From an uncultured Acidobacteriaceae bacterium (GTDB taxonomy: Bacteria; Acidobacteriota; Terriglobia; Terriglobales; Acidobacteriaceae): a stretch of DNA of 64,000 nucleotides. Location of the stretch: NCBI GenBank assembly GCA_963806565.1, contig CAWDYE010000006.1, positions 17,618-81,617 of the forward strand. Direction: 5' to 3'. Positions 414-23,594 of this stretch are shown here, piece after piece (the first letter of the stretch is position 1; each line of letters opens with the position of its first letter). A program made the position numbers and the translations under genes. The notes beneath the pieces were generated by a model, which saw only the letters and a program-made list of their open reading frames with translations, was not told the DNA's origin and made no database searches.

Positions 414-535
414 TTCGACCGCCTTCCTGAAAAACCTGTCAAGAGGAAAATGAACTTTTTAACGCCTGCAAAAATACTGTATCATAGCTTACGCGGTCAA
501 GCCGTATTCCCGGTAAGCAATAGACTGACATTGCC

Positions 536-925: not shown

Positions 926-956
926 GTGGCCGGAGAGTGCAGGTTTCCGTGGAAAC

Positions 957-1103
957 ATGAAAAGAAGACATTCTTTTCATAGCTGAAAAACATCCGTAGC
1001 GGAGGCATCAGTCAAGGCCGCGAAGCGCCGCCGCAGCGGGCGGAGCGAAGCGGAGAGCCTTTACGGATGCCGGAGCGGAGGATATAGCCGCGTCAGCGGC
1101 TAA
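957..1103. other. Conserved structured non-coding element, copy 1
   Basis: ATGAAAAGAA-GACA-TTCTTTTCAT palindrome (957-980), CATCCGTA..TACGGATG inverted repeat, TAGCCGC-GTCA-GCGGCTA hairpin (1085-1102); homologous copies at 12780 and 24772. Confidence 0.75.
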
Positions 1104-3874: not shown

Positions 3875-3880
3875 GGTTGT

Positions 3881-4573: not shown

Positions 4574-4941
4574 CGCGCCGCCTTTTTCTGCGCCGCCAAC
4601 CGCTCCCGCGCGCGCTGCATTTTGGTCGCATCCACCCGCGCGATCTCCGCCCGTACCTCTGCCTCGCCCGGAACAGCATGATCGGGAAGCGGGCGAAGAT
4701 TCAAAAACAACGCCCGCAACGCAAGAACCTCCGACAGCAACACTTCGCCCAAAAGATCGTCCGCCGTGTTGCTGACATCCGTGTCACTCCCGCCGCCTGG
4801 ACGGCCAGTCCCCAGCAACTTCGCCCGCATCCACTCCGAGAGCGTCAGATTCTCCGCCCGCGCCCGCGCCTCCAACGTCGCATACTCCGCGTCGCTGACC
4901 TTCGTGCCTACCGATTTTGTCCGCAGAGATGCCTTCACCAT
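4570..4941 (-). CDS. Ribbon-helix-helix relaxosome accessory protein (TrwA/MobC-like)
   Basis: RTKSVGTKVSDAEYATLEARA..LTLSEWMR RHH-like pattern; first gene of the mob module; overlaps the next start. Confidence 0.75.
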   Translation of the reverse strand: MVKASLRTKSVGTKVSDAEYATLEARARAENLTLSEWMRAKLLGTGRPGGGSDTDVSNTADDLLGEVLLSEVLALRALFLNLRPLPDHAVPGEAEVRAEIARVDATKMQRARERLAAQKKAAR

Positions 4942-4945
4942 GCCG

Positions 4946-5104
4946 TCACCTCTCCGCCTTGAACTGGTTCATCCCCGCAACCATCCGCGCGATGTACTCC
5001 TCGACAGCCTCCGATCGGTGCAAGCTCGGGCGCTCGCTGGCGACTGGCGGCGGCGCTTTGGTTGGCTCCGGCTGGCTCGCCGGGAACTGCTGCGGCTGAT
5101 TCAT
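4946..5104 (-). CDS. Small 52-aa protein upstream of the RHH gene
   Basis: MNQPQQF..EYIARMVAGMNQFKAER; same-length frame kept in unit B (16776..16934) despite substitutions. Confidence 0.5.
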   Translation of the reverse strand: MNQPQQFPASQPEPTKAPPPVASERPSLHRSEAVEEYIARMVAGMNQFKAER

Positions 5105-5328
5105 GGATTCCTCGCTTTCTATGGACGCGGCACGGCGGTTTTCAGCTAAGGGAAGGAAAATCATCACGTTACCCAACAGCAACCCGCGCCCAACTCTAGC
5201 TTAACGCCGACATAGTCATTTTTGTCTATTAGACGCTTGTTTTCTTGTGGTTCGCGCTCAGTAACCTGTAAACACCTTATTTTTAGAGAGTTTTTCTTTT
5301 AGCTGCTTGATTCCATTACTGTTCCTGC

Positions 5329-5384
5329 CGCAGTAACCGAAGGTTACTGCGCAGCATCCATTCTGGGGTAATGTGTCCCCCTAA
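5329..5384 (+). promoter_or_regulatory. Candidate oriT (inverted repeat plus nic-like site)
   Basis: CGCAGTAACC-GAA-GGTTACTGCG perfect hairpin (5329-5351), then GGGGTAATGTGT/CCCCCTAA, upstream of the mob genes. Confidence 0.5.
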
Positions 5385-5510
5385 AACCGATGCGTAGCAG
5401 CGCGGGCTTTTTGCTGGTTGCGCCGAGGCTTTGGACGGAGGCCACTGACGCAAGCAAGCCGCCCCGGAGGACGGCTGGCGGCTGGATGCAACGACGGCAT
5501 ACGGAAAGGC

Positions 5511-6128
5511 TCATTCGGAGTTTGCGACATGAATCCAGATGATCTTACCTTCGCTAAAACCTATCCGGGCGGATCGGCTATCGTCCTTGCAACCTTCCTT
5601 TTCATTGAGCAGACAACTGTACAAATAGCTCTGGTCTCCAACCGAAATCTGGCTTGTACCTGCCACCTTAATCCCCGCGATCACGCCTAGATCGTTCTTT
5701 TTGTCCAGTTTCTTGGTAAAAACAGGTTCACGATAGGCGCGGACGAGGGCTTCTTTGCTGCTACCGATGCCGATCCCTTCTGGCGTTTTCCAAATTTCTG
5801 GATCGATTGTTGTTGTCGTTGTCGGAAGCCCCTTACAGTTAGGGAAGGAACTGAGCAAAACATCCGCCACGCGACCAGATCGGTCATCCATAGGCCGCAC
5901 GTACAAGTACAGACCGTGTTTCGGATCAGAAAAGCAGTAGGTGTCTCTACCAGCAGGCTTCGCGCCAAAATGCTCCAGAAATGATTTCATGGACGTATCG
6001 CGGTCAAGGCTATAAAAGCCGAGTGAACGCGGTCCGGCATAATGCCCCCAAGGACTCGGATTCTGCGCCGCCAGTGTTGAACCCAGGACCAGGACCAGCA
6101 AAGCTCGAAATTTGATGATTTGTCTCAT
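5511..6128 (-). CDS. Putative exported immunity protein for the upstream Rhs tip
   Basis: Overlaps the toxin stop by 4 nt; signal peptide MRQIIKFRALLVLVLGSTLAAQ; identical copy at 17339..17956. Confidence 0.75.
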   Translation of the reverse strand: MRQIIKFRALLVLVLGSTLAAQNPSPWGHYAGPRSLGFYSLDRDTSMKSFLEHFGAKPAGRDTYCFSDPKHGLYLYVRPMDDRSGRVADVLLSSFPNCKGLPTTTTTIDPEIWKTPEGIGIGSSKEALVRAYREPVFTKKLDKKNDLGVIAGIKVAGTSQISVGDQSYLYSCLLNEKEGCKDDSRSARIGFSEGKIIWIHVANSE

Positions 6129-7102
6129 TCTGGGTTGTTATTCCTCGAGTATGGAATGATCCCGGATTCGGCAGGGTTATGCTGAGAATTCGTAATTGTT
6201 TGACCAAGAGAGATTACGTCAGCGTTCTGGCCTCGTGTGCAACCTGTGGTAGGCTTCCAACCTTGCTGGTCTGCCATTGGATCAGGTAAACCGGTCCCCC
6301 CACCATGAATTGCCCTTCCTCGCGAATCGCCGGTGTCGATAAATGCTCCTGCCGGACCATACGCATCTTGGCCTGCATGTCGATCACTCGTACCCTTGAT
6401 ATTCGGAGTCGAATACGGATTGTCGGCACCCGGCTCAGACTTCTTGTGATCAATATCGTTTTTGGTCTCAATTGTCTTTGTCGTGGTCTTCCCATAAACG
6501 TCCGTTGACTTGAATGTGGTCGTGTGCCCACTCATGTCGGTATGCAAGCTGGACGAGGGAACCTTTGGTGTGAAGTGCGTGTCCGGTGGTGGAGGCGGAA
6601 GCGGCGGCGGCGCTCCGAAGCAAACCGTGATACCGAGAACTGTGTGGCACCCGTGTCCATCTGGATCAATTCGCGTCATCGGGTTGTTCATGACGTAGGC
6701 GTAGAGATTCAAGCTCTGCGGATTGTCGAGCTTCGCGTATGGTACGGGTTCCTGTTTCGCCGACCAATCGGGCGACATAAACCGCCCCATTGAGCTTGCG
6801 TAGTACCTAGCCCCGAAGTAGTCGTTGCCTGATTCGGCATCTCGTTCTTTGCCGGTATAGCGTGATCTGATGCGCTCCAGATGCAACGCTGCTTGCAAGC
6901 CTAATGCAGTCGTGGAGTTGCAGACTTCATGCACCTGATGCAGTGCAGGATTTTTACTCGAAAACCCCAGACGCGGTTTTTCTCTTAGCTGCGGCATTGC
7001 GGCTAGTGGCGGTTGCGACAACACGGGGATGGAAGCAAGTTGCATCTGCATCCGATTGTACGACTTGAGGGGGCGAGTTGGGCAGCGGATTGTGCGCGGC
7101 AT
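6125..7102 (-). CDS. Orphan/mini Rhs protein: leader, Rhs core end and L,D-transpeptidase-like toxin tip (start uncertain)
   Basis: YTGKERDAESGNDYFGARYY..RFMSPD..NNP..IDPDG core motif; tip has IHGG-x16-TTGCTRGQNAD. Confidence 0.85.
   Translation of the reverse strand: MPRTIRCPTRPLKSYNRMQMQLASIPVLSQPPLAAMPQLREKPRLGFSSKNPALHQVHEVCNSTTALGLQAALHLERIRSRYTGKERDAESGNDYFGARYYASSMGRFMSPDWSAKQEPVPYAKLDNPQSLNLYAYVMNNPMTRIDPDGHGCHTVLGITVCFGAPPPLPPPPPDTHFTPKVPSSSLHTDMSGHTTTFKSTDVYGKTTTKTIETKNDIDHKKSEPGADNPYSTPNIKGTSDRHAGQDAYGPAGAFIDTGDSRGRAIHGGGTGLPDPMADQQGWKPTTGCTRGQNADVISLGQTITNSQHNPAESGIIPYSRNNNPE
6681..6856 (-). repeat. 176-bp Rhs core-end direct repeat, copy 1
   Basis: Encodes TGKERD..MNNP; copies at 18509-18684 and 26667-26842. 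Confidence 0.9.
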
Positions 7103-7246
7103 TGCGCACAGATTGCACGGCGGCAGTTCTGCGGACTGCGCGCGACATTACACACAGTTTGCGCGCGACATTGCGCGACAGAAGTGCACAGATTGTGCGC
7201 GTTTGCGGACTGCATTGCAGCACAGATCGGCGGACGATTGCGCGGT
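7080..7246. repeat. Degenerate short repeats (GCGCGACATT, GCACAGATT, GCGGACTGC each twice)
   Basis: Low-complexity tract read directly; equivalent position to 18953-19012. Confidence 0.55.
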
Positions 7247-7660
7247 CTATAGCTGGATGATCTGGAGGCCGGGGATCATCTGGAAGTGGCGGAGATTGAC
7301 AGTCGCTACGGCGTAGCCATGCTCCAGCGCAGTGACTCCGATCAGCAGGTCGGCGAAGGGGATGGTCACGCCCTGGGCGCGCTGTTCGCCGTCGATCTTC
7401 CCGGCCAGCATCGCCGTTGCTTTGGCGTAGGGAACCACGTCCATGTCGGCCAGAAGATCGCCGATAAAACGCTCGTGGTTCTGGCGCTGAACGGGGTTCG
7501 ACGCGCGATAGATTGAGTGCACAAGCTCGGTGAGTCCCACGGCGGAGAGCGCGACCCGTTGGTCGCCCGCCGTCGAGACGATGCGCCGGAGCAGTTGCGG
7601 CACGGTTTCGCGTTGGCGCTCGGCGGCGATTACTACGCTGGAGTCCAGTATCAGGCCCAT
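7247..7660 (-). CDS. vapC: VapC PIN-domain toxin
   Basis: LILDSSVVI..E, DLLIGVTAL, VATVNLRHF PIN motifs. Confidence 0.9.
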   Translation of the reverse strand: MGLILDSSVVIAAERQRETVPQLLRRIVSTAGDQRVALSAVGLTELVHSIYRASNPVQRQNHERFIGDLLADMDVVPYAKATAMLAGKIDGEQRAQGVTIPFADLLIGVTALEHGYAVATVNLRHFQMIPGLQIIQL

Positions 7661-7664
7661 TCGA

Positions 7665-7952
7665 TCAGTCCCATGCCGGAGGATTCAACGGCTCAGGATG
7701 GCTGTTGACGACCGCTTCCAAGTCGCGGGCGAAGCTGCCATCGAGCAGCGCCGAAGAACCGCGCGTTTCGGCGGCTGCGATGACTTCAGAGAGCAGACGA
7801 CCGGGGCCAGCGGGAACGGCGGGCCGCACGACGGCCACGGCGCGAGTTTCGAACTCGATGACGATCTCCGCGCCCAAGCGGACGTGCGCCATCAGTCCGG
7901 CGAAGTCGCGGGCGGCTTCAGCTTCCGAGATGTGGATGGTTGCCATACTCAT
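7665..7952 (-). CDS. Phd/YefM-like antitoxin
   Basis: ISEAEAARDFAGLMAHV..GAEIVI pattern; directly upstream of vapC. Confidence 0.8.
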   Translation of the reverse strand: MSMATIHISEAEAARDFAGLMAHVRLGAEIVIEFETRAVAVVRPAVPAGPGRLLSEVIAAAETRGSSALLDGSFARDLEAVVNSHPEPLNPPAWD

Positions 7953-8024
7953 GATGATACCTCGATTCCAGCTTTTTTCCTTTAGCAGCTAAAAGAAGCT
8001 ACTAAAAGAAGAACTGCGCGCGCG

Positions 8025-9084
8025 TTATTCGCGGTCTTCCTCGGCCTCCGCCGCAAGCATTTGGAGGAGTGCTTCGGCGTCGGGACTCGTGGCTTTTGTG
8101 GCCGGGTTCTCGCCCTTTTCGAGCATGGCTCCGGGATGAGTTGCGGCATGGACTTGTTGCAGGGTTCGGATGGCAACCTGCGTGTAAATCTGCGTGGTCT
8201 TGATGTCCTCGTGGCCGAGCATCTGCTGGATAAAGCGGATGTCCGCGCCGCCCTCGTGCATCAGCGTGGCCATCGTGTGGCGGAAGAGATGGCAGGAGCC
8301 GGTCTTGCCCAGCTGCGCCGCCTCGATGCGTTCCTTGACCGCGAAGCTCAGATGATCGCGGCTGAACGGCTCGCCCTGGGCCGTGAGGAAAACGGTCATG
8401 TCGTCCGGCTCGATGGCCAGTTGCGGACGGCCCTCCCGGATGTACTTCTGGAGCCATGCTATCGCCCGCTCTCCGATGGGAACGTAACGGTCCTTCTGGC
8501 CCTTGCCCTGGCGAACGAGGAGCAAGCCCCGGTCAAGCGAGAGGTCGTACAGTTTCAAGTGCGATCATCTCCATGCGGCGCAGGCCGGTTGAGTACAGCA
8601 CCTCCAAGATGGCGCGGTCGCGCAAGCCGATTGGCTCCTCGATCTCGCACAGTTGCATGATGCGCTCGACCTCCTGAACAGAGAAGATGTTCTTGGGCAG
8701 GGCGCGGCCCAGCCGGGGAAGCTCAAGCTCCGAAGCCGGATTATGCAGGATGTGATTCTGCCGCGTCATCCATCGGAACCAGACGCGCAACGGGACCAGG
8801 CAAGAGTGCTGCGAACGGAAGCTCAACGGCTCGCCGTTCTTCTTCCGATAGTGGAAGAGATGCCGCTGATACCGCTCCAGTACAGGCCGCGTAATCTCGA
8901 CCGGCTCGCTCAAGCCGCGCTCCTTGCACCACTGGAGGAAAAAGCCGATGTGGACCTGGCGATTGCGCACCGTATGCACGGAGTAGTTCTGCACGGCCAG
9001 GGTGCGCAGATGGTCCAGCATCAGCGATTCCAGCAGCGTCTCCGGGAGCGCCTGCGGTTTACGGGTTTTGGTTATGCGCGCCAT
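8025..9084 (-). pseudogene. XerC/D-like tyrosine recombinase split by an apparent 1-nt insertion near 8559
   Basis: ORFs 8533..9084 and 8025..8558 join as RRMEMIA/LKLYDL versus RRLELVRLKLYEL in 19282..20340; HLFRH, LGH and TQIY present; could be a sequencing error. Confidence 0.85.
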
Positions 9085-9298
9085 TCGTGCGCCTCCTTTC
9101 TGCTCTGAACATGGTTACGATGGAGCGGAGTTTCTTCTTGCCCCGTATAAGTGTTTTTCCGGCTTTCAACGCCGATGTGCCTGGAGTCCGCATGAACACT
9201 GGCTAAACCCGGCATAAAGTGAACCCGACACCCCGCCGACTTGGGGCCGACTTGGCCCCGACTTTTGGCCCTCCGGCCCCGACTTCTTTTCGTCGTAG

Positions 9299-12235
9299 TC
9301 ATTTCTTGCCCAGCTTTTCTACGTCGATCAGCCCGCCCAACACCGGCTTTCCGCCGTCGGCGGGCCGCGTAAAGACAAGCTCGTACACGATGCTCTGGCC
9401 ACGGCCGCCGCGATGAACCAACAGGTATTCCAGTTCCTCCAGCCGGTGCAGATGGATTTTCAACTGCGTATCGCCCCAGCTCGTCGCCTCGCGCACGTCG
9501 CGCCGGGAGAAGCGGTAATCGGAGCGTTCCATCTTCTGCCGCTTGCACTCGGCTGTAACCATCTCGTCCACGGTCAACAGCAAGCGCCTGGTCTGCGGCG
9601 GCAACTCGTCCAGCGAGCGGCCCAGCACTTCATGGGCGAGCCGGTTGGCGACGGCTATATCGTTCACCGTGACCTCGATGTACTCGACTGCGCGGCCATT
9701 GTGCTGGACTGTCTTCGGTGGCCGCTGATATTGATGCAACAGCGCCACGCTGCGGATGAGCGTCAGATACTTCATGTGGTCGCGCCTGGTCCGCGTCTGC
9801 GAGTCGTGGAAGGTCAGTTCCCGCGCGTAGGGATTGACCACGGGAACGGGCTTCAAGAGCCGCTGCGCGTTGCGATGCACGGCAAGCACCGCGTCGCGGT
9901 CCCGCCGCCGCAACAGCCCTTCGACCGTCTGCGCCTCGCGCTGCACACGATGGATAGCCTGGGTCTGCTCCCGGTCTTCATTGACGGAGAGGACAAGGCA
10001 GCGGTTCAGCATTTCCTCGTCAAGATCGATGGTCGTGGTTGTCAAGAAGATCATCACCGGGCCTTCGACGCGGTACTGATGCGTGAGCAAGCGCCCTGTC
10101 GCCGGGTCTTTGCCGGTGCTGGCGATAGTCAACACGCCTTCCGACTGCAACAGCTTCAACGCATAGGCCGCTGTGTGCGCGCCCTCTTCCTCCACGATGG
10201 CCAGTACCTTGTGCTTCAAGTCCTGCTCGCCCATGTAGAAGAGTGACTGCCCCGTCATGGCCGAGTATTGAACGCGCTGCTCTTCGGGCAGGAACGCGAG
10301 TACGGCTTCCATCAGCGAACTCTTGCCAGCGGCGGAACTCGACTGCACGATGATTGCAAGCGGCGCTTCCAAGTGCCGCGAGACCACGCCCAGATAGCCC
10401 ACGAGTTTGTTGGTCTCTTCGCCCACCACGCCGCACCGGGCGAAGTCCTCGACGATGCGCTCCAACAGGCGCGGATCGCGCAACAGCTTGAGCGCCTCGG
10501 CCTGGTCGTGGTCGGTCATTGCGACTGTCTCGTCCTTCGGCGCAAGCGCCTGCTTGATCTGCGCGTCCTGCATCTCCTCCAGCTTCATCAGCACTCGGCC
10601 CAGGTCGCGGCGCAACACTTCTTCCTTGATGCCAAGCTCCTCGGCGGCTTGCTTCGTAAAGCCGCTGCGCTGCCGCGCCGAGTAAAGGTCCAGCGTGTCC
10701 ACATGGAAGGCCGACTCGCCGCGCGTCGTCTTGCCGGATAGCAGGACATTGACCTTCATCAGTTCGTAACTCAGATTCTTGTGAAGGCCACGGATGCGGT
10801 AACGCCGCTCGCCCTGCTGCAAGAAGATGTCCTCGCCGCGCATCTCGACGGGAACATCGATAGTCGGCGCGGGCGCTGCTGGGCCTGGCTCCGGCTCGGT
10901 CGGCGCAACCGGCTCCGGCGAGGCGGCTAAGGAAAAAACCTGTTCTTCGATCTCGGCGGGGATGGATGCGGCGGGGGCTGGCTCTGGAGTAACTTCGATG
11001 ATTTTTTCTTTAGTTGCTGCTTTTGTCTCTGCTGGCAGTGGCTCGATGCTTGACTCTGGCTCCGCGCTTGGCTCCGGCTCGGCCTCGATCATTGGCTCCA
11101 GCGCGCGCGGCTCTGGCCGCTGCCCCTTGCCCAGCCACTCCGCCTTATTCAGCATCACGCCCAGACTCTTCGCCGCTGGCTGCACCTTCAAGGCGTAGGA
11201 GTTCGCGTCCATGTCCTTCGGGAAGAGCACACGGAAACACTCGATTCCCATTTGCATCAGATCCTCGGCCAGCTTCGCCGCTGCGCTGTTTCCGGCCTCG
11301 TCGCGGTCGTATGCGATGTACACCCGCTCGATGCCGTGCTGGGCGAAGGCCGCGCGATGATCAGCTGTGAAGCCATTCACGCCGTAACTGGCCGTGACAT
11401 TGCGGAAGCCCGCAACCCAAAAGGTCAAGGCGTCTATCAACGCCTCGCACAGGATGACTTCTTTCGATGCGGCCAGCGCCTCTTCGTTCCACACGCCCCG
11501 ATGCTCGCCCGGTAGATACAGGTGGCTCGGCGTTCCCTCGCGCAGGTTCGGCGTGACCTTGCGCCCGTACATCTCCATCACGTCACCCGCCGGATTGATG
11601 ACCGGGATAACCAGCGAGCCGTTGAAGTGCTCGTGCCCGCTCTCCCGCAAGATGCCCAGCTTTTGCAGCCGTCCGCGCATCTCCGCGCCGGCGGCGCGGT
11701 TCTTCGCCGGCAGGCGATAACCCAGCGTCCGGTTGGCGAAGCCAAGCCGGAAACGGTCGATGATCTCCGGCGATTTCAGGCCGCGCGACTCCAGATACCG
11801 CATTGCCTCCGGCGACTGTTTCAGCGTCTCGCTGTAGTAGCTCACGACCTGCAACAGCAACTCGCGGTCGTCCGCGTCCCGCGCCACGGGCGGCGGCAGC
11901 TTGCGCACCGTGCCGTGCTTCACCGGCTGGACCGGATCGGCGGCTAAGGGAAGATGGTCCTCTCTGAGAAGCTCGACGGCATGGCGGAAGCTGATGCCGT
12001 TGGCCTTCATTACCCAGTCGATCACCGTCCCGCCTTCATTGCACGCGCCCAGGCAGTGCCAGAGATTCTTCGCCGGAGTGATAACCAGCGACGGGTTGCG
12101 GTCGTCATGGAACGGGCAGAGGCCCAGCAAGTCGGCACCGTGCCGGTGCAACTTGATGCCCCGCGCCTCCGCCAACCGCTGCACCGATACCTCCCGTTTC
12201 AGCCGCTCGACCTCGTGCTCCGGGATTCTCGCCAT
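9299..12235 (-). CDS. CHC2/Toprim primase fused to a P-loop helicase-like domain; C-terminal tail appears frameshifted
   Basis: CPFHDD..HCLGAC, EALIDA/AYDRD Toprim, SSSAAGKSS Walker A; residues matching the paralog tail (KNT..LHRN) are in another frame at 9072-9300. Confidence 0.92.
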   Translation of the reverse strand: MARIPEHEVERLKREVSVQRLAEARGIKLHRHGADLLGLCPFHDDRNPSLVITPAKNLWHCLGACNEGGTVIDWVMKANGISFRHAVELLREDHLPLAADPVQPVKHGTVRKLPPPVARDADDRELLLQVVSYYSETLKQSPEAMRYLESRGLKSPEIIDRFRLGFANRTLGYRLPAKNRAAGAEMRGRLQKLGILRESGHEHFNGSLVIPVINPAGDVMEMYGRKVTPNLREGTPSHLYLPGEHRGVWNEEALAASKEVILCEALIDALTFWVAGFRNVTASYGVNGFTADHRAAFAQHGIERVYIAYDRDEAGNSAAAKLAEDLMQMGIECFRVLFPKDMDANSYALKVQPAAKSLGVMLNKAEWLGKGQRPEPRALEPMIEAEPEPSAEPESSIEPLPAETKAATKEKIIEVTPEPAPAASIPAEIEEQVFSLAASPEPVAPTEPEPGPAAPAPTIDVPVEMRGEDIFLQQGERRYRIRGLHKNLSYELMKVNVLLSGKTTRGESAFHVDTLDLYSARQRSGFTKQAAEELGIKEEVLRRDLGRVLMKLEEMQDAQIKQALAPKDETVAMTDHDQAEALKLLRDPRLLERIVEDFARCGVVGEETNKLVGYLGVVSRHLEAPLAIIVQSSSAAGKSSLMEAVLAFLPEEQRVQYSAMTGQSLFYMGEQDLKHKVLAIVEEEGAHTAAYALKLLQSEGVLTIASTGKDPATGRLLTHQYRVEGPVMIFLTTTTIDLDEEMLNRCLVLSVNEDREQTQAIHRVQREAQTVEGLLRRRDRDAVLAVHRNAQRLLKPVPVVNPYARELTFHDSQTRTRRDHMKYLTLIRSVALLHQYQRPPKTVQHNGRAVEYIEVTVNDIAVANRLAHEVLGRSLDELPPQTRRLLLTVDEMVTAECKRQKMERSDYRFSRRDVREATSWGDTQLKIHLHRLEELEYLLVHRGGRGQSIVYELVFTRPADGGKPVLGGLIDVEKLGKK

Positions 12236-12377
12236 TTCTTCCGCCCTCCGCTGAAAAACCTGTCAAGTGCTTTTTTCGCTCTTTGCAGTTTTTCTCGCCG
12301 TGCCTCAGTATATACATACAGTGTATATCCAGCCAGCGGTTTGGAGGAGTGCTTAAAAATGGACCATAAAATCCGTC

Positions 12378-12752
12378 TTGACGATGCCCGCGAAGAAAGA
12401 ACCACATTCCGCATTCGGCAAGCGCCTCTTCGCTCTCAGGAAGACGCGCGGCCTCACTCAGGTACAGCTTGCCGAAGCCCTGGGAACAACCCAGCGCGTA
12501 ATTTCCTACTACGAGACGGAAGCTGAACTGCCTCCCTCGACAGCCATCATTCCGCTGGCGCGCGTCCTGGAAGTTTCCACGGATGAGTTGTTGGGATTGA
12601 AGCCCGCTGAGCCGAACGGCAACAGCAGCATACAGAAGCAGCGGCTTTGGAAGAGATTTCAGAAGATGGACGTGCTGCCGACGAAGGATCAGAGAGCCGT
12701 GATTCGGCTGATTAACTCGCTGGCTGGAAGCTCTCCGGCGGAGGCCAGCTAG
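12378..12752 (+). CDS. XRE-family HTH regulator
   Basis: FGKRLFALRKTRGLTQVQLAEALGTTQRVISYYE. Confidence 0.9.
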   Translation: MTMPAKKEPHSAFGKRLFALRKTRGLTQVQLAEALGTTQRVISYYETEAELPPSTAIIPLARVLEVSTDELLGLKPAEPNGNSSIQKQRLWKRFQKMDVLPTKDQRAVIRLINSLAGSSPAEAS

Positions 12753-12779
12753 TCCGGCTTTTCATGTGTTTTTGGACAC

Positions 12780-12926
12780 ATGAGAAAAATACATTTTTCT
12801 CATAGCTGAAAAACATCCGTAGCGGAGGCATCAGTCAAGGCCGCGAAGCGCCGCCGCAGCGGGCGGAGCGAAGCGGAGAGCCTTTACGGATGCCGGAGCG
12901 GAGGATATAGCCGCGTGAGCGGCTAA
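12780..12926. other. Conserved structured non-coding element, copy 2
   Basis: ATGAGAAAAA-TACA-TTTTTCTCAT; rest nearly identical to copy 1; hairpin TAGCCGC-GTGA-GCGGCTA. Confidence 0.75.
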
Positions 12927-15697
12927 AGACTGTACCCCTGATCGAACTCATGCGCGTGAGCGGGAACCGGCTCGATCTGCCGCACAGTGTCCGGCTGGGT
13001 AGGTGTCTGCTGCTGCATCCCCTCTGGCTGGATGGCCGACGTATGCGATACGTCCTGGCTCAACGCATGGCCCAGCGTCCCGGCGTCGTTCGTGTACATC
13101 TGCACATCGAACTGCGCCCGCGACACAGAGACATAAGCCATGCGGCTATTGAGAAGCTGGCTGTGCGCCTGCTCGGAGTCCACATGGACAAGCACACGGT
13201 CGGCGGTCTGGCCCTGGCTGCTGTGGCTCGTTACCGCGTAACCATAGTCCAGATGCGGATGCTGCTTGACGTTGAACTCAACCTCACGGCCTGAGTCCAT
13301 CTTGAGTTTCAGGTCGCCGCTGCCGTCGATCTTTTCAACCGTCCCCAGCTCACGGTTGGCGAGTTTCTGCTCATGGTACGGCGCGGTCATCTGCACCCGG
13401 TCGCCCTGGGCGAAGCTGCGCTCGGTGTCACGGTAGACGGTCACGCCCTGCAAGCGGCGCGGGTCGTAGCTCAGTTCCTCGCCGGACTTGCGAGTGACGG
13501 TTACGGTGTTGCTCTCGCGGTCGGTGTGGGCCACACGCGCATACTCTCCGGCCTCGATTCCCAGCGGCTTCGACCCTTTCGAGTAGCGGATCACGTCGCC
13601 CTGTTCATAGTTCTGCGCGTGTTGCCGGTCGGCCCCTGTGATGTCCTGCCGTGCATACAGCAGCGCGACGCGATGCTCATCGGGTTTGACCTGGCCGGAC
13701 TCCTGCATCGCTCGATGGATGTGCTGGTTGATCTCGCGGCGGGATTCATTGTCGGGCGAGACGACAAGCGTATTCTCCGGCTGGCGCACATACTCGCGGG
13801 CTATCTCGCGGATGCGCTCGCTGCGGTCCTCGATCTCATGTACCCGGCCCTGGCCGTTGAGATTGGCGATGGCTTCTTTGACTTCGCCCCGCGCAAGCTG
13901 CTCCACGGCCTCTTTCAACGCCGGGTCTTTCTGCCGGATGATTTCGTCAAGCCTGGCCGTGCGCATCCCGGCCTCTTGCAACTGCGCATAAGGTCGGCCA
14001 GCTTCGACCGCTTCATGCTGCCGCACGTCGCCAACGAAGAGCACACGATCATTTTCTTTTAGCCGCTCTACGAACGTGTGCATCTGCTTGGTGCTGGCCA
14101 TGCTCGATTCATCGACCACATAGAGCCGCTTTTGTCCGTCGTCGGCACGGTCGCCGCGCGTAAGATGCCGCTGCAAGGTCTCCGTCTCCATGCCCGACTC
14201 GCCCAGCTTTTTCGCCGCGCCGGACGTGGGCGCAAGCCCCTTGACCTCATAGCCCGCACTGACAGCGGCCTCCCGGATGGCGGCTAAAGAAGTAGTCTTT
14301 CCGCCTCCGGCCACGCCCTCAAGAGCCATCATCCGGTCGCGGTTTTCGAGCACATCTTCGACCGCCCGCCGCTGGCTCATGCTCAGATGCGGATGGTTTA
14401 CCTCGACCTGCTGCCGGACCTGGCCATCGGCCAGCACTTCGCGGTTGCCCTGGCCCATGCGCATCCGCTCGACGATCTCGCGCTCGTAGCCCTGCATCTC
14501 GCCCGTCGTGAACGCGCGGCCCGCCAGCCCTGGCCTGCGCTGGACCTCGATCAGCTCACGCGCGGCGACGCGCCGCTCGAACTCGGCCCGCACCTCCGGC
14601 AACCGTGCCGCGCCCATGCTGTGCTTCAACGCATCGCGCATCAGCGTCCGCTCATCGACCACGGCCTCGCGCTCCGTGCCGCGCTCCCGCGCATAACTCA
14701 CGGCAGCCTGGGCGACACGCTGCGACTCTTCCGGCTGAAGCTCGACGCCTGGTCGCCGTTGCGCGTCCTCGATCACCCGTTGCGGCTGATGGCCGTATTC
14801 TGCGGCCATTGCCCGATGCTGCGCCTGGACCTGCTCCGGCGTTAAATCGAGCTTTGCCTCGCGCGTCTTGTGCGCCGCGATCTGCGCCGCCTCCGGCCCG
14901 GAGCGGCCCTGCTCTGCCAAGTTTTCGGTGATTTGTTGACGCCGCGGACTCGATGCCTCCAAGTATTCCCGCGTGTAACCTTTGATCTCCGGCTGCCCAT
15001 GCTCGCCGCGCTCGATCTCGTAACCCAACTGCTGCAACCGCGCCGACAACTCCGAACGGTAAACCGCCGTCGCGTACTGCTGCGTCTTGTAAAGTTCCTG
15101 CGGCTGCAACGCCCGCGTGGTCCCGTCGGCGGTCTCGGCGATATTGAAAATCACCGTGTGCGTGTGCAACTGCGGCGCGGCGTAGCCATCGACCGGACGG
15201 CTGCTGTCGTGCTCGAACTTGGCCACCACCCATGCGCCCGTCGTCTCTGCTGGAGCGTTGCCGCCGATGCGCGCCTGCGCGTACTTTTCCATCTCATTGA
15301 GCGCAACGCGAACGCTCTCCCGGTGCGCATCTTTCACGCGGTCGTCGCCGCCGACAAGCGCCGTCAACGATACCGACTTCGGCGCGGAGAACGTCGCATC
15401 CCAGCCCGCCCGGTGCTCCATCGTGCGCACCGTCTGGCCCTGCTCGTTCACATACTCCCGCGCCGTTTGATGCCGTACAAGTTGCTCGCCGGTTGCCGGA
15501 TGCTGGCCCTCACTCAACCGCGCGAACTGCTCTTCATTCACTTCGCCAGCAAGTCCGTAATGCTCAGCGAGCTTGCCTTGCCACTCGCCGCGCACATGGT
15601 CGCCCTCGGTGTAGTAGTTGTCCCGCGCGTTGGCGAACTCTTCTTTGTGGTACTCTCGCGCCTGGCTCGCGCTGATCGGTTTCGACATTGTAATCAT
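12923..15697 (-). CDS. MobF (TrwC-like) relaxase-helicase, paralog of 1100..3874
   Basis: Same motifs and length (924 aa). Confidence 0.95.
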   Translation of the reverse strand: MITMSKPISASQAREYHKEEFANARDNYYTEGDHVRGEWQGKLAEHYGLAGEVNEEQFARLSEGQHPATGEQLVRHQTAREYVNEQGQTVRTMEHRAGWDATFSAPKSVSLTALVGGDDRVKDAHRESVRVALNEMEKYAQARIGGNAPAETTGAWVVAKFEHDSSRPVDGYAAPQLHTHTVIFNIAETADGTTRALQPQELYKTQQYATAVYRSELSARLQQLGYEIERGEHGQPEIKGYTREYLEASSPRRQQITENLAEQGRSGPEAAQIAAHKTREAKLDLTPEQVQAQHRAMAAEYGHQPQRVIEDAQRRPGVELQPEESQRVAQAAVSYARERGTEREAVVDERTLMRDALKHSMGAARLPEVRAEFERRVAARELIEVQRRPGLAGRAFTTGEMQGYEREIVERMRMGQGNREVLADGQVRQQVEVNHPHLSMSQRRAVEDVLENRDRMMALEGVAGGGKTTSLAAIREAAVSAGYEVKGLAPTSGAAKKLGESGMETETLQRHLTRGDRADDGQKRLYVVDESSMASTKQMHTFVERLKENDRVLFVGDVRQHEAVEAGRPYAQLQEAGMRTARLDEIIRQKDPALKEAVEQLARGEVKEAIANLNGQGRVHEIEDRSERIREIAREYVRQPENTLVVSPDNESRREINQHIHRAMQESGQVKPDEHRVALLYARQDITGADRQHAQNYEQGDVIRYSKGSKPLGIEAGEYARVAHTDRESNTVTVTRKSGEELSYDPRRLQGVTVYRDTERSFAQGDRVQMTAPYHEQKLANRELGTVEKIDGSGDLKLKMDSGREVEFNVKQHPHLDYGYAVTSHSSQGQTADRVLVHVDSEQAHSQLLNSRMAYVSVSRAQFDVQMYTNDAGTLGHALSQDVSHTSAIQPEGMQQQTPTQPDTVRQIEPVPAHAHEFDQGYSL

Positions 15698-15703
15698 GGT
15701 TGT

Positions 15704-16397
15704 TTACTCGAATCGGGGACGTGGTTTCTTCGCCGCTGCGGGACGCGCCTCGGACGGTTTTGCCGCTACAACCGGCGGCGGAACTGGCGCCGCAATCGGC
15801 GGTTTTACAGGGTGCGCTGCGGCCTTTGCCTGAGCCGCCGCGCGCCGCCTGCGCTCGATAAAATCCATCAGCTTTTGCCACTGCTTTTCGTAGGAGAACT
15901 TCGGCCAACGATCCTTCGGAACGGCCACCGGCAACAGCAACGCCAGCAGCCCCAACGCCCAAAAAAACGGCCTCCGGGCCGACTCATAAATATCGTCGTG
16001 GTAGATCCACTGGCGCATAAAATCATGCAGCTTGCGGTCGTTGTACTGATGCGTCTGCCACTCCAGCCGCACGAACCCCGCGCGGCTGCCCTCCGCCGTC
16101 AGTTGGTACGTTGGTTCGCCATTCTGCACCCGCCGCCGCCTCCATCTCGTCGCCCGTAACCAACAGCGTTTGCTTCTTCGCCGTCACCCCTTCAAGCAGC
16201 CGATAGCGCGTTACAGACTGCTCCGAGAGACTGCCCCACACTCCGCTCTCCAGATAAACCCACAGGTCAAGATGCTCCGCCGCGCTCCACACGTTCCGGT
16301 AGACCTGAACATACAGCACGCAGAAGAAAACGCCCGCCGCTATCAGCGTCCAGCGCGTCCACTTCCAGTACCGGCGCGGCCCATACCAGTCACTCAT
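15704..16397 (-). pseudogene. Paralog of 3881..4573 with an apparent extra base near 16124
   Basis: MSDWYGPRRYWKW.. frame and ..NGEPTYQLTAEG.. frame join at GGT GCA G AAT. Confidence 0.75.
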
Positions 16398-16771
16398 CGC
16401 GCCGCCTCGCTCACCTTTTTCTGCGCCGCCAACCGCTCCCGCGCCCGCTGCATCTTGCTCGCATCCACCCGCGCGATCTCCGCCCGTACCTCCGCCTCGC
16501 CCGGAAGTGCATGATCGGGAAGCGGGCGAAGATTCAAGAACAACGCCCGCAACGCAAGAACCTCCGCCAGCAAAACTTCGCCCAAAAGATCGTCCGCCGC
16601 CTCGCTGCCTGGACGGCCACTCCCGCCGTCCGTGTCCGGCTCCAACAGCTTCGCCCGCATCCACTCCGAGAGCGTCAGATTCTCCGCCCGCGCCCGCGCC
16701 TCCAACGTCGCATACTCCGCGTCGCTGACCTTCGTGCCTACCGATTTTGTCCGCAGAGATGCCTTCACCAT
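16394..16771 (-). CDS. RHH relaxosome accessory protein (TrwA/MobC-like)
   Basis: Paralog of 4570..4941. Confidence 0.75.
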   Translation of the reverse strand: MVKASLRTKSVGTKVSDAEYATLEARARAENLTLSEWMRAKLLEPDTDGGSGRPGSEAADDLLGEVLLAEVLALRALFLNLRPLPDHALPGEAEVRAEIARVDASKMQRARERLAAQKKVSEAAR

Positions 16772-16775
16772 GCCG

Positions 16776-16934
16776 TCACCTCTCCGCCTTGAACTGGTTC
16801 ATCCCCGCAACCATCCGCGTGATGTACTCCCGCACAGCTTCCGATCGGCGCAAGATCGGGCGCTCGCTGGCGGCTGTCGCTGGCGCTTTGGTTGGCTCCG
16901 ATTGGCTGGCCGGGAACTGCTGCGGCTGATTCAT
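16776..16934 (-). CDS. Small 52-aa protein
   Basis: Paralog of 4946..5104. Confidence 0.5.
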   Translation of the reverse strand: MNQPQQFPASQSEPTKAPATAASERPILRRSEAVREYITRMVAGMNQFKAER

Positions 16935-17156
16935 GGATTCCTCGCTTTTATGGACGCTCGACGGCGGTTTTCAGCTAAGGGAAGGAAAATCATCACGTTA
17001 CCCAACAGCAACCGGCGCGTGTTTATAGAATAGCTCGGATGACTCAATTTTTACTTTTAGTCGCTTGTTTTCTTATGGTTCGCGCTCGGTAACCTGTAAA
17101 CGCCTTATTTTTAGAGATTTTTTCTTTTAGCTGCTTGATTCCACGATAGTTCCAGC

Positions 17157-17212
17157 CGCAGGAACCGAAGGTTACTGCGCAGCTTCCATTCTGGGGTGAT
17201 GTGTCCCCCTAA
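17157..17212 (+). promoter_or_regulatory. Candidate oriT, copy 2
   Basis: CGCAGGAACC-GAA-GGTTACTGCG, then GGGGTGATGTGT/CCCCCTAA. Confidence 0.5.
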
Positions 17213-17338
17213 AACCGATGCGTAGCAGCGCGGGCTTTTTGCTGGTTGCGCCGAGGCTTTGGACGGAGGCCACTGACGCAAGCAAGCCGCCCCGGAGGAC
17301 GGCTGGCGGCTGGATGCAACGACGGCATACGGAAAGGC

Positions 17339-17956
17339 TCATTCGGAGTTTGCGACATGAATCCAGATGATCTTACCTTCGCTAAAACCTATCCGGGCGG
17401 ATCGGCTATCGTCCTTGCAACCTTCCTTTTCATTGAGCAGACAACTGTACAAATAGCTCTGGTCTCCAACCGAAATCTGGCTTGTACCTGCCACCTTAAT
17501 CCCCGCGATCACGCCTAGATCGTTCTTTTTGTCCAGTTTCTTGGTAAAAACAGGTTCACGATAGGCGCGGACGAGGGCTTCTTTGCTGCTACCGATGCCG
17601 ATCCCTTCTGGCGTTTTCCAAATTTCTGGATCGATTGTTGTTGTCGTTGTCGGAAGCCCCTTACAGTTAGGGAAGGAACTGAGCAAAACATCCGCCACGC
17701 GACCAGATCGGTCATCCATAGGCCGCACGTACAAGTACAGACCGTGTTTCGGATCAGAAAAGCAGTAGGTGTCTCTACCAGCAGGCTTCGCGCCAAAATG
17801 CTCCAGAAATGATTTCATGGACGTATCGCGGTCAAGGCTATAAAAGCCGAGTGAACGCGGTCCGGCATAATGCCCCCAAGGACTCGGATTCTGCGCCGCC
17901 AGTGTTGAACCCAGGACCAGGACCAGCAAAGCTCGAAATTTGATGATTTGTCTCAT
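17339..17956 (-). CDS. Putative exported immunity protein
   Basis: Translation identical to 5511..6128. Confidence 0.75.
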   Translation of the reverse strand: MRQIIKFRALLVLVLGSTLAAQNPSPWGHYAGPRSLGFYSLDRDTSMKSFLEHFGAKPAGRDTYCFSDPKHGLYLYVRPMDDRSGRVADVLLSSFPNCKGLPTTTTTIDPEIWKTPEGIGIGSSKEALVRAYREPVFTKKLDKKNDLGVIAGIKVAGTSQISVGDQSYLYSCLLNEKEGCKDDSRSARIGFSEGKIIWIHVANSE

Positions 17957-18876
17957 TCTGGGTTGTTATTCCTCGAGTATGGAATGATCCCGGATTCGGC
18001 AGGGTTATGCTGAGAATTCGTAATTGTTTGACCAAGAGAGATTACGTCAGCGTTCTGGCCTCGTGTGCAACCTGTGGTAGGCTTCCAACCTTGCTGGTCT
18101 GCCATTGGATCAGGTAAACCGGTCCCCCCACCATGAATTGCCCTTCCTCGCGAATCGCCGGTGTCGATAAATGCTCCTGCCGGACCATACGCATCTTGGC
18201 CTGCATGTCGATCACTCGTACCCTTGATATTCGGAGTCGAATACGGATTGTCGGCACCCGGCTCAGACTTCTTGTGATCAATATCGTTTTTGGTCTCAAT
18301 TGTCTTTGTCGTGGTCTTCCCATAAACGTCCGTTGACTTGAATGTGGTCGTGTGCCCACTCATGTCGGTATGCAAGCTGGACGAGGGAACCTTTGGTGTG
18401 AAGTGCGTGTCCGGTGGTGGAGGCGGAAGCGGCGGCGGCGCTCCGAAGCAAACCGTGATACCGAGAACTGTGTGGCACCCGTGTCCATCTGGATCAATTC
18501 GCGTCATCGGGTTGTTCATCAGGTAGGCATATAGGTTTAAGCTCTGCGGATTGTCGAGCTTTGCGTATGGAACGGGTTCCTGTTTCGCCGACCAATCGGG
18601 CGACATAAACCGCCCCATTGAGCTTGCGTAGTACCTAGCCCCGAAGTAGTCGTTACCTGATTCGGCATCTCGTTCTTTGCCGGTACAACGTGACCCAGCA
18701 TCGCCGCCGTACAACGATCCGGATAAGCCCAGCGTGTTGCTGGAGATAACGAAGCCTGAAGCCCAGTGTATTGTGCTGGCAACAGTTGTGAAGCCCTGAC
18801 GCGAGTTTTCGGCTAACTGCGAGTTGGCAGCTAACGCAAAATGCTCTGGAAGAGCGGTCTGTAAGGCGGCGTTCAC
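17953..18876 (-). CDS. Orphan/mini Rhs protein with the same toxin tip as 6125..7102 but a different leader
   Basis: CTGKERDAESG..YAYLMNNP..DPDG core end; tip identical. Confidence 0.85.
   Translation of the reverse strand: MNAALQTALPEHFALAANSQLAENSRQGFTTVASTIHWASGFVISSNTLGLSGSLYGGDAGSRCTGKERDAESGNDYFGARYYASSMGRFMSPDWSAKQEPVPYAKLDNPQSLNLYAYLMNNPMTRIDPDGHGCHTVLGITVCFGAPPPLPPPPPDTHFTPKVPSSSLHTDMSGHTTTFKSTDVYGKTTTKTIETKNDIDHKKSEPGADNPYSTPNIKGTSDRHAGQDAYGPAGAFIDTGDSRGRAIHGGGTGLPDPMADQQGWKPTTGCTRGQNADVISLGQTITNSQHNPAESGIIPYSRNNNPE
18509..18684 (-). repeat. 176-bp Rhs core-end direct repeat, copy 2
   Basis: Aligns without gaps to copies 1 and 3. Confidence 0.9.
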
Positions 18877-18900
18877 TGGCTCCGATTGTACGTCTTCCGC

Positions 18901-18934
18901 CCCACAGACGAAGACCTGTCTGTGGGGACCCCGG
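18901..18934. repeat. Dispersed hairpin repeat, second copy at 57352-57379
   Basis: GACGAAGACCTGTC(T/C)GTGGGGACCCCGG 27/28 match; stem CCCACAGAC..GTCTGTGGG. Confidence 0.7.
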
Positions 18935-19281
18935 AGCTTGAGGGGCCGGGATGGGCAGCGGATTCGGCCCCGGATTGGACGGCGATTGGCGGGCCGATTG
19001 CGGGCCGGATAGGACAGCTAAAAGCAGCGGCTAAGGGAAAAACATCAGGGACGTTTCCGGCCAGAAACGGCCTCCGCTGAAAAACCTGTCAAGCATTTTC
19101 TTGAGGCCGGAGCGGATTTTTGGGTGTTCCGGTTGGTATACGCCGGACGTATATTTCCTCTCGATCCGGGCTTTTTCTAAAACCCTGTCAAGAGGATTCG
19201 AGAGGTTTTTTGTTGGTTGGAAAATACTACCCTATGTAGTATTGGCTGGGCCGTCCTGACAGCCCCAGAGTTGTTTTTCTC

Positions 19282-23477: not shown

Positions 23478-23594
23478 CCGCTCGCCCTCCGTTTTTCAGG
23501 TATTCTGTAGAAAAGCTGTCAAGTGACTACAGTGTCATAATACATGATGATATTGTAGTCACTACAAGGCGAGATATTTGGGGAGGGTTTTACG

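Follow-up and report, generated by a model that had tools for sequence, protein, structure and literature searches.

The window analysed here is a 64,000-nt stretch of the genome of an uncultured Acidobacteriaceae bacterium (GCA_963806565.1, contig CAWDYE010000006.1, positions 17,618-81,617 of the forward strand), which is shown to hold three tandem integrative mobilizable elements (E1, E2 and E3) at the 14-bp sequence ACCGGCAAAGAACG. The elements and their genes lie on the reverse strand, as does a full-length rhs gene (1863-aa ORF, 26695-32286). In each element its own Rhs core-end, toxin tip and immunity gene are followed by a stem-loop and a MOBF-type oriT, with the backbone then running through nikA, X and trwC (in E2 and E3) to a primase, an Xer-like integrase and a "leader". 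Two of the three elements encode a MOBF TrwC relaxase, while an Xer-like integrase and a primase are found in each. E3 (1-6856, extending upstream of the window to about C6:13360), termed unit C in the first-pass annotation, comprises core-end C, tip, immunity gene, oriT and the mob genes nikA (4570-4941), X (3881-4573) and trwC (1100-3874), with its primase and integrase genes fragmented, the latter frameshifted. E2 (6857-18684; 11,828 bp), the former unit B, carries core-end B, tip, immunity gene, oriT and leader C, together with nikA (16394-16771), a frameshifted X, trwC (12923-15697), a primase (9299-12235), a split integrase (8002-9084) and an antitoxin-PIN pair (7247-7952). E1 (18685-26842; 8,158 bp) has core-end M, leader B and an oriT-like site without mob genes, in addition to a peptidase-M91-like tip (26051-26872), an immunity gene (25284-26018), a primase (20337-23477) and an intact Xer-like integrase (19282-20340). 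The integrase matches Phage_integrase (Pfam, 133.7 bits) and the XerC-subfamily model NF002331 (445.6 bits against a cut-off of 371). Some 25 nt before the att core the reading frame of rhs is interrupted, such that core-end and tip are read in another frame.

The 14-mer encodes TGKER at the start (5′ edge) of the Rhs core-end and is found at the E2/E3 junction (6843-6856, reverse strand), the E1/E2 junction (18671-18684) and the junction of the rhs core with E1 (26829-26842), with identical copies bordering both E1 and E2. In a contig from another sample (L172), leader B (214/214 identical) runs through the 14-mer into an E1-type core-end and tipA; for E1 this is the predicted attP or tandem junction, and the exchange falls inside the 14-mer. 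Past the 14-mer, the first diagnostic bases change in the way that attL, attR and attP sites predict, and in L166, L167 and L171 the change of partner or the divergence also falls exactly at the 14-mer. The arrangement in L172 shows that the "main-rhs-type" core-end is part of the inserted E1 and not of the rhs gene. The targeting of rhs parallels that of tRNA genes by integrative elements, yet alters the gene product.

The cargo of E2 and E3 is read from two orphan ORFs on the reverse strand. Orphan C (6125-7102) consists of a leader, an Rhs core-end (TIGR03696, 69.7 bits against a cut-off of 32.5, residues 78-150) and a YkuD-like tip, while orphan B (17953-18876) joins another leader and a mosaic core-end to the same tip. 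The core-end region of orphan C reads ...LNLYAYVMNNPMTRIDPDGH..., an Rhs core with the DPxG cleavage motif ahead of a variable tip, and the three-way core-end DNA homology ends at the MNNP codons. Tlde1-type antibacterial effectors are L,D-transpeptidases of the YkuD fold, and the tip resembles these in a catalytic-type motif noticed by eye (H-x19-TGCTR), with the signal-peptide-like N-terminus of its partner fitting a periplasmic target. The match to Pfam YkuD is weak (E=0.01; 16.8 bits, below the 23.4-bit cut-off), and a PDB sequence search with the tip gave no match. The putative cognate immunity gene (205 aa; 5511-6128, second copy 17339-17956, reverse strand) overlaps the tip stop by ATGA and has a signal-peptide-like N-terminus. 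The exact immunity protein is also present in two ENA and four Logan contigs, and a homologue of 31-32% identity lies behind a 45% related tip on contig C5. Among 300 genomes of the family no relative of the immunity gene closer than 36% identity was found, and the copies in E2 and E3 are therefore taken to be each other's source. The cassette ends in the stem-loop GCAAGCCG-CCCCGGAGGA-CGGCT(G/T)GC (5454-5479, forward strand), with further copies in the window at 17282 and 25239. Only five copies exist in the genome, each 3′ of an Rhs cassette, and the stem-loop recurs at 20 loci in other Acidobacteriaceae. An integron- or rAID-like cassette array was considered and rejected, since every unit has an integrase of its own and it is the core-end 14-mer, and not the stem-loop, that marks the junctions.

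Beyond the stem-loop, the oriT core of E3 (5331-5381, forward strand) comprises a hairpin with 9-bp arms, GCAGTAACC-GAA-GGTTACTGC, followed by GGGGTAATGTGT|CCCCC, with a putative nick at 5376/5377. The E2 copy lies at 17159-17209, and in the E1 copy, which has no mob genes, the putative nick is at 25164/25165. The hairpin, whose arms covary, and an invariant GGGG(G)NGACGTGTCC are found upstream of nikA-trwC at a minimum of 12 loci, and other Acidobacteriaceae share this oriT beside the two genes. The exact nick position, GTGT|CC, is putative, being inferred by analogy with MOBF sites, and GGGGTGAYGTGTCC is likewise a candidate TrwC cleavage sequence. Both TrwC copies are intact (924 aa) and match Pfam TrwC (300 and 298 bits), AAA_30 (189 bits) and the NCBIfam MobF model (233 bits against a cut-off of 100), with an HUH-type motif FEHDSSRPVDGYAAPQLHTH, an N-terminal Y16 and Y28-Y29 and, at residue 461, a Walker A motif. 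The architecture is that of a MOBF relaxase, with an N-terminal TrwC-type domain and a C-terminal SF1 helicase. No match to VirB4 (PF03135) or VirD4/TraG (PF02534) was found in the whole genome, so that conjugative transfer from this cell would require an absent helper, and the elements are at most mobilizable in trans.

Ungapped comparison at an offset of 11,828 shows that 5371-6691 in E3 and 17199-18519 in E2 (both on the reverse strand) are identical at all 1321 positions. Mismatches stop on the left at 5370/17198 (A/G) and resume on the right at 6692/18520 (G/C), while the flanks directly outside differ at 17/155 positions on the left and 11/169 on the right. In a gapped whole-unit alignment this is the longest exact run, the second longest being 171 nt, and the mob backbones (950-5370) differ at 379 of 4416 aligned columns (8.6%), a divergence at which the log10 probability of 1321 nt without a mismatch is -51. 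The first-pass annotation, which had proposed this exact match, its sharp breakpoints with diverged flanks, identical tip and immunity proteins in both units and different Rhs leaders, was borne out on each count. The tract begins with ATGTGTCCCCC (5371-5381). Its contents, from the nick-distal half of the oriT through stem-loop, immunity gene and toxin tip to the final 11 nt of the core-end, make up most of the cargo arm that extends from the relaxase nick site to the att core.

This arm, designated T1 (the YkuD-like tip with its exported immunity protein), recurs in independent assemblies, two from ENA and three from Logan runs, each time in the context of E3. The context seen in E2 is confined, among the assemblies searched, to this one, with three Logan contigs passing 6692 unbroken as C-type. 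Both observations could indicate an assembly artefact, in which arm contexts from different strains, or a free 11,828-bp circle, were threaded together or polishing homogenised the repeat; the genome is a metagenome-type assembly of six contigs, and the repeat would allow 5371-17198 to close as a circle. However, long reads easily span a 1.3-kb repeat, polishing cannot remove some 110 expected differences while leaving edges at two functional sites, and the independent assemblies confirm the arm base for base. We regard an artefact as highly improbable, and even as a chimera or a circle one arm would be present on two diverged backbones, leaving the biological inference intact.

The left end of the tract lies 7 nt from the putative nick GTGT|CC. 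This agrees with the nic-like left break described earlier, and the site falls within a conserved oriT beside nikA-trwC that behaves as a recurrent recombination junction. Homology between E2 and E3 continues for 4.4 kb at 91% to the left of the nick, and as such the break was not forced by the end of homology. When 17 Rhs-linked oriTs were compared, the relationships of the left and right halves were incongruent; unit A, for example, is 89% identical to L034 on the left and 61% on the right, with the corresponding values for L035 being 57% and 88%. In three family triplets the parental switch falls between -17/-8/-6 and +4/+7, while the E2/E3 exchange point lies to the right of -7 and those of strain pairs between -21 and +10, the resolution being limited by informative sites. 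Taken together the alignments indicate that the putative nick is a recurrent junction at which the left and right oriT halves reassort. The nick block is the sole strongly conserved island between diverged oriT types, such that some of the family-level junctions could be homology-guided. Nick-anchoring is not universal, however: E1 lacks a relaxase gene, and the stretches it shares identically with L171 and L172 continue past its oriT-like site for 2.2 kb and 0.45 kb, respectively.

In the four copies of T1 compared (E2, E3, L166 and L167) the arm is the same save for two adjacent bases at +9/+10, while the backbones differ by 1-9%, beginning within 30 nt of the nick. The tracts of identity extend over 5371-6691 for E3 and E2, 5387-6838 for E3 and L167, 5357-6838 for L166 and L167 and 5387-6841 for E3 and L166, the last pair having just two further differences to 7971. 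Thus all left ends fall close to the nick, whereas the right ends differ among pairs.

The same observations could be explained by ordinary RecA-dependent gene conversion between tandem homologous units, with the ends set by chance, mismatch density or the end of homology and the relaxase uninvolved. Recombination works well on tandem repeats that are 91-95% identical, the tract adjoins on its right six mismatches in 19 nt that would block strand exchange, and the units are mosaic elsewhere (1587-1787, for example, is only 69% identical). The identity tracts of E1 with other strains, ignoring as they do its oriT-like site, are in keeping with such conversion, and Rhs tips are known to move via core-end homologous recombination (PMC3967940). 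It does not readily account for a left end 7 nt from an independently defined recurrent junction in spite of 4.4 kb of further homology, for which the uniform expectation is about 15/4500 (roughly 0.3%), nor for the fact that, in three or more backbones, the junction with this arm falls within 30 nt of the nick site. Gene conversion of this kind is considered less likely than a nick-anchored swap, though far from negligible.

At the right end, the sequence CAGGTAGGCATATAGGTTTAAGC is present in E2 (18520-18542) and in the main copy (26678-26700) and absent from E3, as had been stated for the bases past the right break. It includes an E1/main-type patch in core-end B (18520-18538, reverse strand), in which six consecutive sites match the main copy and differ from E3, setting the right end of the identity. 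In a three-way comparison from 6692 to 6856, up to the att core, all nine of the differences between E2 and E3 carry the E1/main base and none is unique to E2, whereas left of the nick E2 does show unique bases. Past the MNNP codons E2 is C-type at 19 of 28 variable sites, with four separate M-type segments. With 9/9 differences of main type and no unique base, the MNNP break looks like a later patch conversion, and the natural right limit of the module, judged from these alignments, is the 14-bp att core (6843-6856/18671-18684) and not the MNNP codons. As such the recent cassette replacement proposed in the first-pass annotation holds for a real and recent toxin-immunity exchange with a nic-like left break, but not for MNNP as the module limit.

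In its full form that proposal envisaged a single replacement bounded by the oriT nick and MNNP, with the tip formerly on a main-rhs-type core-end, in keeping with perfect identity stopping at MNNP and the next 23 nt of E2 being those of the main copy. Against it, E2 is still largely C-type past MNNP with no unique base and M-type segments that resemble patch repair, in L166, L167 and three Logan contigs the core-end joined to T1 is C-type, MNNP has no evident recombinase site and the supposed main-type core-end is that of E1. This scenario is thus very unlikely. The suggestion that the tip was once joined to a main-rhs-type core is nonetheless right, on other grounds, as the att analysis implies that core-end B and the T1 tip were attached to the main rhs core prior to the insertion of E1. 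The occurrence of the T1 tip on a C-type core-end in two other strains makes E3, by parsimony, the donor context.

On balance we lean towards a nick-anchored swap, which would have put the T1 arm onto a second backbone. T1 would be a young module recently set on several older, diverged backbones, with the left junction at the oriT nick each time and one such event giving E2 and E3 the same arm. This may have come about through nic-to-nic processing of the tandem array by TrwC, packaging one arm with the backbone of its neighbour and re-integrating the package at the rhs att, or through nick-initiated, one-directional gene conversion. At first the two arms probably matched as far as the att core, with later short conversion patches from the adjacent E1 core-end altering nine sites in core-end B and trimming the identity to MNNP. 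Catalysis of the exchange by TrwC is plausible. More tentatively, and with rather less confidence than the swap itself, these may be vehicle elements for Rhs tips in the Acidobacteriaceae, combining in-frame att insertion, reshuffling of arms by att-att and nic-nic exchange and toxin sweeps. The Xer-like integrase would insert in frame at the TGKER core, replacing the resident toxin and pushing it downstream; with the toxin-immunity arm lying right next to the MOBF nick site, tandem arrays processed alternately by att-att and nic-nic events would exchange arms among backbones, and a new toxin-immunity pair could sweep the population on many backbones.

The diversity of Rhs and other polymorphic toxins is usually put down to homologous recombination with silent orphan cassettes. 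In the present case the tips are carried by site-specific mobile elements aimed at the toxin gene, with a conjugation nick marking one edge of the module, and the alignments suggest that toxin modules are reshuffled between element backbones at the nick site. If confirmed, this would tie conjugative DNA processing to interbacterial toxin diversification, which are usually studied apart, and would explain in concrete terms how gene-specific sweeps of toxin-immunity pairs could arise among soil bacteria, with the 14-bp att core and the candidate MOBF nick sequence as defined sites.

Integrative and mobilizable or conjugative elements can accrete in tandem at one att site, as in streptococcal elements. 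The present elements resemble these in having a tyrosine recombinase, a relaxase and an oriT but no mating-pair apparatus, with several in tandem at one att and some decayed. They differ in inserting within a protein-coding toxin gene, whose 3′ end is rebuilt by the element so as to encode another toxin. Displacement of Rhs C-termini and orphan rhs-CT/immunity modules have been described, for example, in Salmonella Typhimurium (PMC3967940). Shared with that system are a conserved core-end, a variable tip and an immunity gene, displaced tips that remain downstream as orphans and core-end exchange. The differences are that tips here arrive on 8-12-kb elements with their own integrase, primase and (in two of the three) relaxase, and that they are joined at a fixed 14-bp core on the 5′ core-end edge, not by a variable homologous crossover.

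In the rAID-1 arrays of Bacteroidales, immunity genes are associated with a recombinase (bioRxiv 10.1101/471110). Both systems link an Xer-family tyrosine recombinase to orphan toxin-immunity arrays and have a repeated structured intergenic element reminiscent of integron attC. Whereas rAID-1 has one recombinase and a long immunity array, each unit here has its own recombinase, primase and oriT and carries a toxin tip with a core-end, inserted in the rhs gene. TrwC of R388 carries out oriT-specific recombination and integration (PMC3264647 and earlier work cited there). The parallel with R388 lies in a MOBF relaxase and two directly repeated oriT copies, with the exchange junction coinciding with the nick region. 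It differs in that the elements here are chromosomal and in tandem in Acidobacteriaceae, with a putative nick, GACGTGT|CC, of another sequence than that of R388, and in that the product would be toxin-arm reassortment instead of cointegrate resolution.

The genes of interest in the array all lie on the minus strand, with a full-length rhs gene (32286-26695) at the head whose core-end and peptidase-M91-like tip (26872-26051) are read in another frame. Downstream of this gene are three repeat units, E1, E2 and E3 (units A, B and C). Each opens with an Rhs core-end (TIGR03696); a toxin tip and an immunity gene come next, with a conserved stem-loop and then an oriT-like site after them. Two of the three go on to encode a NikA-like protein, a membrane protein of 230 aa (X) and a 924-aa TrwC relaxase-helicase (233 bits with the MobF model, cut-off 100), and all three have a primase of the DnaG type (about 1000 aa) together with a tyrosine recombinase, the XerC-subfamily model being passed at 445.6 bits (cut-off 371), before ending in a leader that runs into the next core-end. 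E1 is without nikA and trwC yet retains the hairpin and a GGGGTGACGTGTCC oriT-like site (25100-25290). In E2 the integrase (8002-9084) is divided between two ORFs and X has a 1-nt insertion (16128), and in E3 the primase and integrase are spread over several frames (C6:13969-17700, in coordinates of the contig that contains the window). An antitoxin-PIN toxin pair (7247-7952) lies between the E2 integrase and leader C, with a ParE-antitoxin-HTH block in its place in two relatives of E1 (L171 and L172). The full-length rhs gene goes out of frame some 25 nt upstream of the att core (26860-26880), with a 2-nt length difference (GCGCCTCGAC vs GCATTGAC), outside any homopolymer, from L171 and in-frame copies on contigs C5 and C2, such that shell and tip are not a single ORF as assembled.

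Comparison of units B and C at an offset of 11,828 revealed no mismatch over 1321 nt (5371-6691 in E3, 17199-18519 in E2), with bounding mismatches at 5370/17198 (A/G) on the left and 6692/18520 on the right. The exact identity claimed in the first-pass annotation therefore holds, as does its reading of ATGTGTCCCCC at 5371. Outside this tract the per-200-nt identity of the two units is 69-97% in a gapped alignment of the whole units and the second-longest exact run is 171 nt. Across the mob backbone (950-5370) 8.6% of sites differ, against none inside the tract, and at that divergence 1321 successive matches have a probability of about 1e-51. Purifying selection was rejected as the cause because intergenic and synonymous positions are identical as well.

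In both E2 and E3 the tract makes up the greater part of the cargo arm, running from the 11 nt that close the core-end (MNNP) to the first bases right of the putative nick. The tip shows an H-x19-TGCTR motif and matches YkuD weakly (E=0.01); a PDB sequence search with it returned nothing at E<=10 and a 52-nt exact tip pattern had no match in JGI metagenomes. The putative immunity ORF (205 aa) has a signal-peptide-like start and is coupled to the tip by an ATGA overlap; no close relative was found in the related-locus search of genome contigs, with the best relative across 300 family genomes reaching 36% identity. The cassette-end stem-loop, GCAAGCCG-CCCCGGAGGA-CGGCTKGC, with an 8-bp stem, loop CCCCGGAGGA and invariant sequence, has only five copies in the genome (5454-5479, 17282-17307, 25239-25264, C5:4597 and C2:512317), each 3′ of an Rhs cassette, and occurs at 20 loci in other Acidobacteriaceae; at two loci (L021 and L025) it directly abuts the Rhs fragment of the next orphan. 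An Rfam scan of 4900-5560 matched neither the stem-loop nor the oriT region to a known RNA family.

The ends of the units are marked by a 14-mer, ACCGGCAAAGAACG, coding for TGKER where the core-end begins. Each of its nine genome copies lies at a core-end start, preceded by an Rhs core in five cases and by a leader in four. The copies at 26829-26842, 18671-18684 and 6843-6856 bound E1 (18685-26842; 8,158 bp) and E2 (6857-18684; 11,828 bp) and start E3, which runs leftwards from 6856 to an end beyond the window. In L172, from another sample, leader B (214/214 identical) is followed by the 14-mer, an E1-type core-end, tip A and immunity A (99.7% identity), and an exact-protein look-up of immunity A with its ATG start also obtained a match; L172 has the arrangement predicted for E1 at an attP or tandem junction. 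Past the 14-mer, the nearest diagnostic bases are E1-type at the rhs-proximal junction, B-type behind leader B and E1-type in L172, indicating an exchange inside the 14-mer as expected of a site-specific recombinase. Campbell-type integration, by homologous crossover anywhere in the core-end, was rejected for E1, the exchange in L172 lying within the first 14 nt, and insertion at the stem-loop was rejected as the oriT region and leader share only one 9-mer.

Partner or divergence also changes at the 14-mer in three further contigs. In L166 (ENA ERZ25039501 contig_51192, 4150-4165) the rhs core ends ...CACCACTAC, exactly at the att position, and is joined straight to sequence like that at 7971 comprising antitoxin, PIN, leader C, core-end C and the same tip, such that E1 and most of E2 are absent in that strain. 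L167 has another cassette upstream and then core-end C, and in L171 identity to the window falls at the 14-mer, mismatches being only scattered on the element side but dense, and accompanied by indels, on the Rhs-core side. From these junctions it was concluded that the units are probably integrative mobilizable elements inserting in frame at the TGKER codons of an rhs gene, where the incoming element would supply a replacement core-end, tip and immunity gene, displacing the old tip downstream behind its own leader.

Other loci show related arrangements. The leader of the orphan after E3 (C6:12849-13598) is 90% identical to leader C, with homology ending 107 nt short of the att position and a different core-end type (…TYRARYYNPQTGRF…) lacking the 14-mer following, such that E3 may be trapped. 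In a second rhs array (C5:1-19500) there are five core-ends, a further two primase-integrase-leader units, a tip of 45% identity with an immunity homologue of 31-32%, and half an oriT, the right half being 87-91% identical to units B and C and the left half unrelated from about -5 relative to the nick. A complete genome of the same genus (G007:C1:3.58 Mb) also has this stem-loop and oriT, along with rhs, an orphan cassette and nikA-X-trwC; after these comes a different integrase, of 409 aa and encoded on the opposite strand, beside housekeeping genes, and the whole rhs locus there may be on one island.

The putative TrwC target is a hairpin followed by GGGGTGAYGTGTCCCCC, with a candidate nick after GTGT. 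In at least 12 loci of other genomes, eight of them without an Rhs cassette, nikA-trwC has upstream of it a hairpin with covarying arms and then invariant GGGG(G)NGACGTGTCC, which in comparative terms argues for a real oriT. A scan with the 14-base nick-block pattern gave mostly chance matches in unrelated phyla, with eight true TrwC-linked oriTs. Among 17 Rhs-linked oriT copies, relationships left and right of GTGT|CC are incongruent. The left and right halves of the unit A oriT are 89% and 61% identical to L034 but 57% and 88% identical to L035, its left half matching L028/L034 at 87-89% and its right half L031/L035 at 88-89%; likewise L029, L032 and L035 have 89% in common on the left and just 57-66% on the right. 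In three oriT triplets the parent switch maps between -17/-8/-6 and +4/+7, and halves have thus been reassorted at the nick block across the family. The B/C tract starts at -6, with the closing mismatch at -7. Left of this point B/C homology continues for 4.4 kb at about 91%, such that the break cannot be put down to homology running out there.

Two ENA assemblies (L166 and L167) and Logan assemblies from three runs also encode exactly this immunity protein. Between B, C, L166 and L167 the arm varies only at the adjacent positions +9/+10, where B and C have AA and the other two have TT, while the four backbones are 1-9% divergent beginning within 30 nt of the nick. Identity tracts run over 5371-6691 for C/B, 5387-6838 for C/L167, 5387-6841 for C/L166 (just two further differences up to 7971) and 5357-6838 for L166/L167, such that the left ends are clustered around the nick while the right ends are variable, a pattern expected of nick-started DNA processing in one direction. 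It is not expected of a cassette exchanged between two fixed ends, the oriT and the core-end, as the first-pass annotation had proposed, a reading which the exact B/C tract fits and the variable right ends make very improbable. Ordinary gene conversion starting at random would not give the left clustering, yet it is a possible, if distinctly weaker, explanation, given that the identity tracts of E1, which has the oriT-like site and no relaxase gene, with L171 and L172 overrun the site by 2.2 kb and 0.45 kb and that the invariant nick block is the sole well conserved island between diverged oriT types.

The derived AA common to B and C makes them mutually closest relatives, and the C-type core-end in L166, L167 and three Logan contigs indicates that the C context is older for this arm. 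An exact-protein look-up of orphan B gave no match, so that the B-type context of the arm is known from the source assembly alone and its junction is without independent confirmation, in keeping with an assembly artefact. Such an artefact is very improbable. Were the tandem order a threading error, the same arm would still occupy two diverged backbones.

At the right break the first-pass annotation had noted CAGGTAGGCATATAGGTTTAAGC at 18520 and 26678, absent from unit C, and suggested that the tip was once joined to a core of the main rhs type. The observation was correct, and the att analysis implies that core-end B and tip were fused to the rhs core prior to E1 insertion; the 'main-type' sequence is that of E1 rather than of the rhs gene. 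Among 28 sites varying between the three core-end copies from 6692 to the att core, B equals C at 19 and E1 at nine, with no B-specific bases, compared to many B-unique bases left of the nick. The nine E1-type sites form four separate segments, the biggest comprising six sites in 19 nt (6692-6710), where further core-end copies of the source and other genomes resemble C. The neighbouring E1 core-end is a direct repeat 8,158 bp from core-end B. The simplest reading of these patterns is that the two arms were once alike up to the att core and that short conversion patches from the E1 core-end later changed B.

Taken together, a nick-anchored swap of the arm is favoured, with somewhat better than even confidence, the left junction plausibly having been made by TrwC. 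Nic-to-nic processing and nick-initiated conversion both fit the data and are not separable. In the former, TrwC would start at one oriT of the tandem array and end at the next, giving a one-period circle (exactly 5377-17204) with the arm of one element and the backbone of its neighbour, and integration of this circle at the rhs att beside an element with the same arm would yield two identical arms on diverged backbones. In the latter, a relaxase nick in one unit would start one-directional gene conversion from the other. No homologue of VirB4 (PF03135) or VirD4/TraG (PF02534) was found in the whole source genome, despite two intact TrwC and three oriT-like sites, such that a helper would be needed for transfer out of the cell, though not for oriT-specific recombination by a relaxase.

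MOBF relaxases and tandem integrative mobilizable elements are known components. Literature searches found no account of elements targeting rhs core-end codons with their own tip, nor of a toxin module with a nick site as its boundary. Rhs tip displacement (PMC3967940), oriT-specific recombination by TrwC (PMC3264647) and recombinase-linked immunity arrays (10.1101/471110) have each been described.
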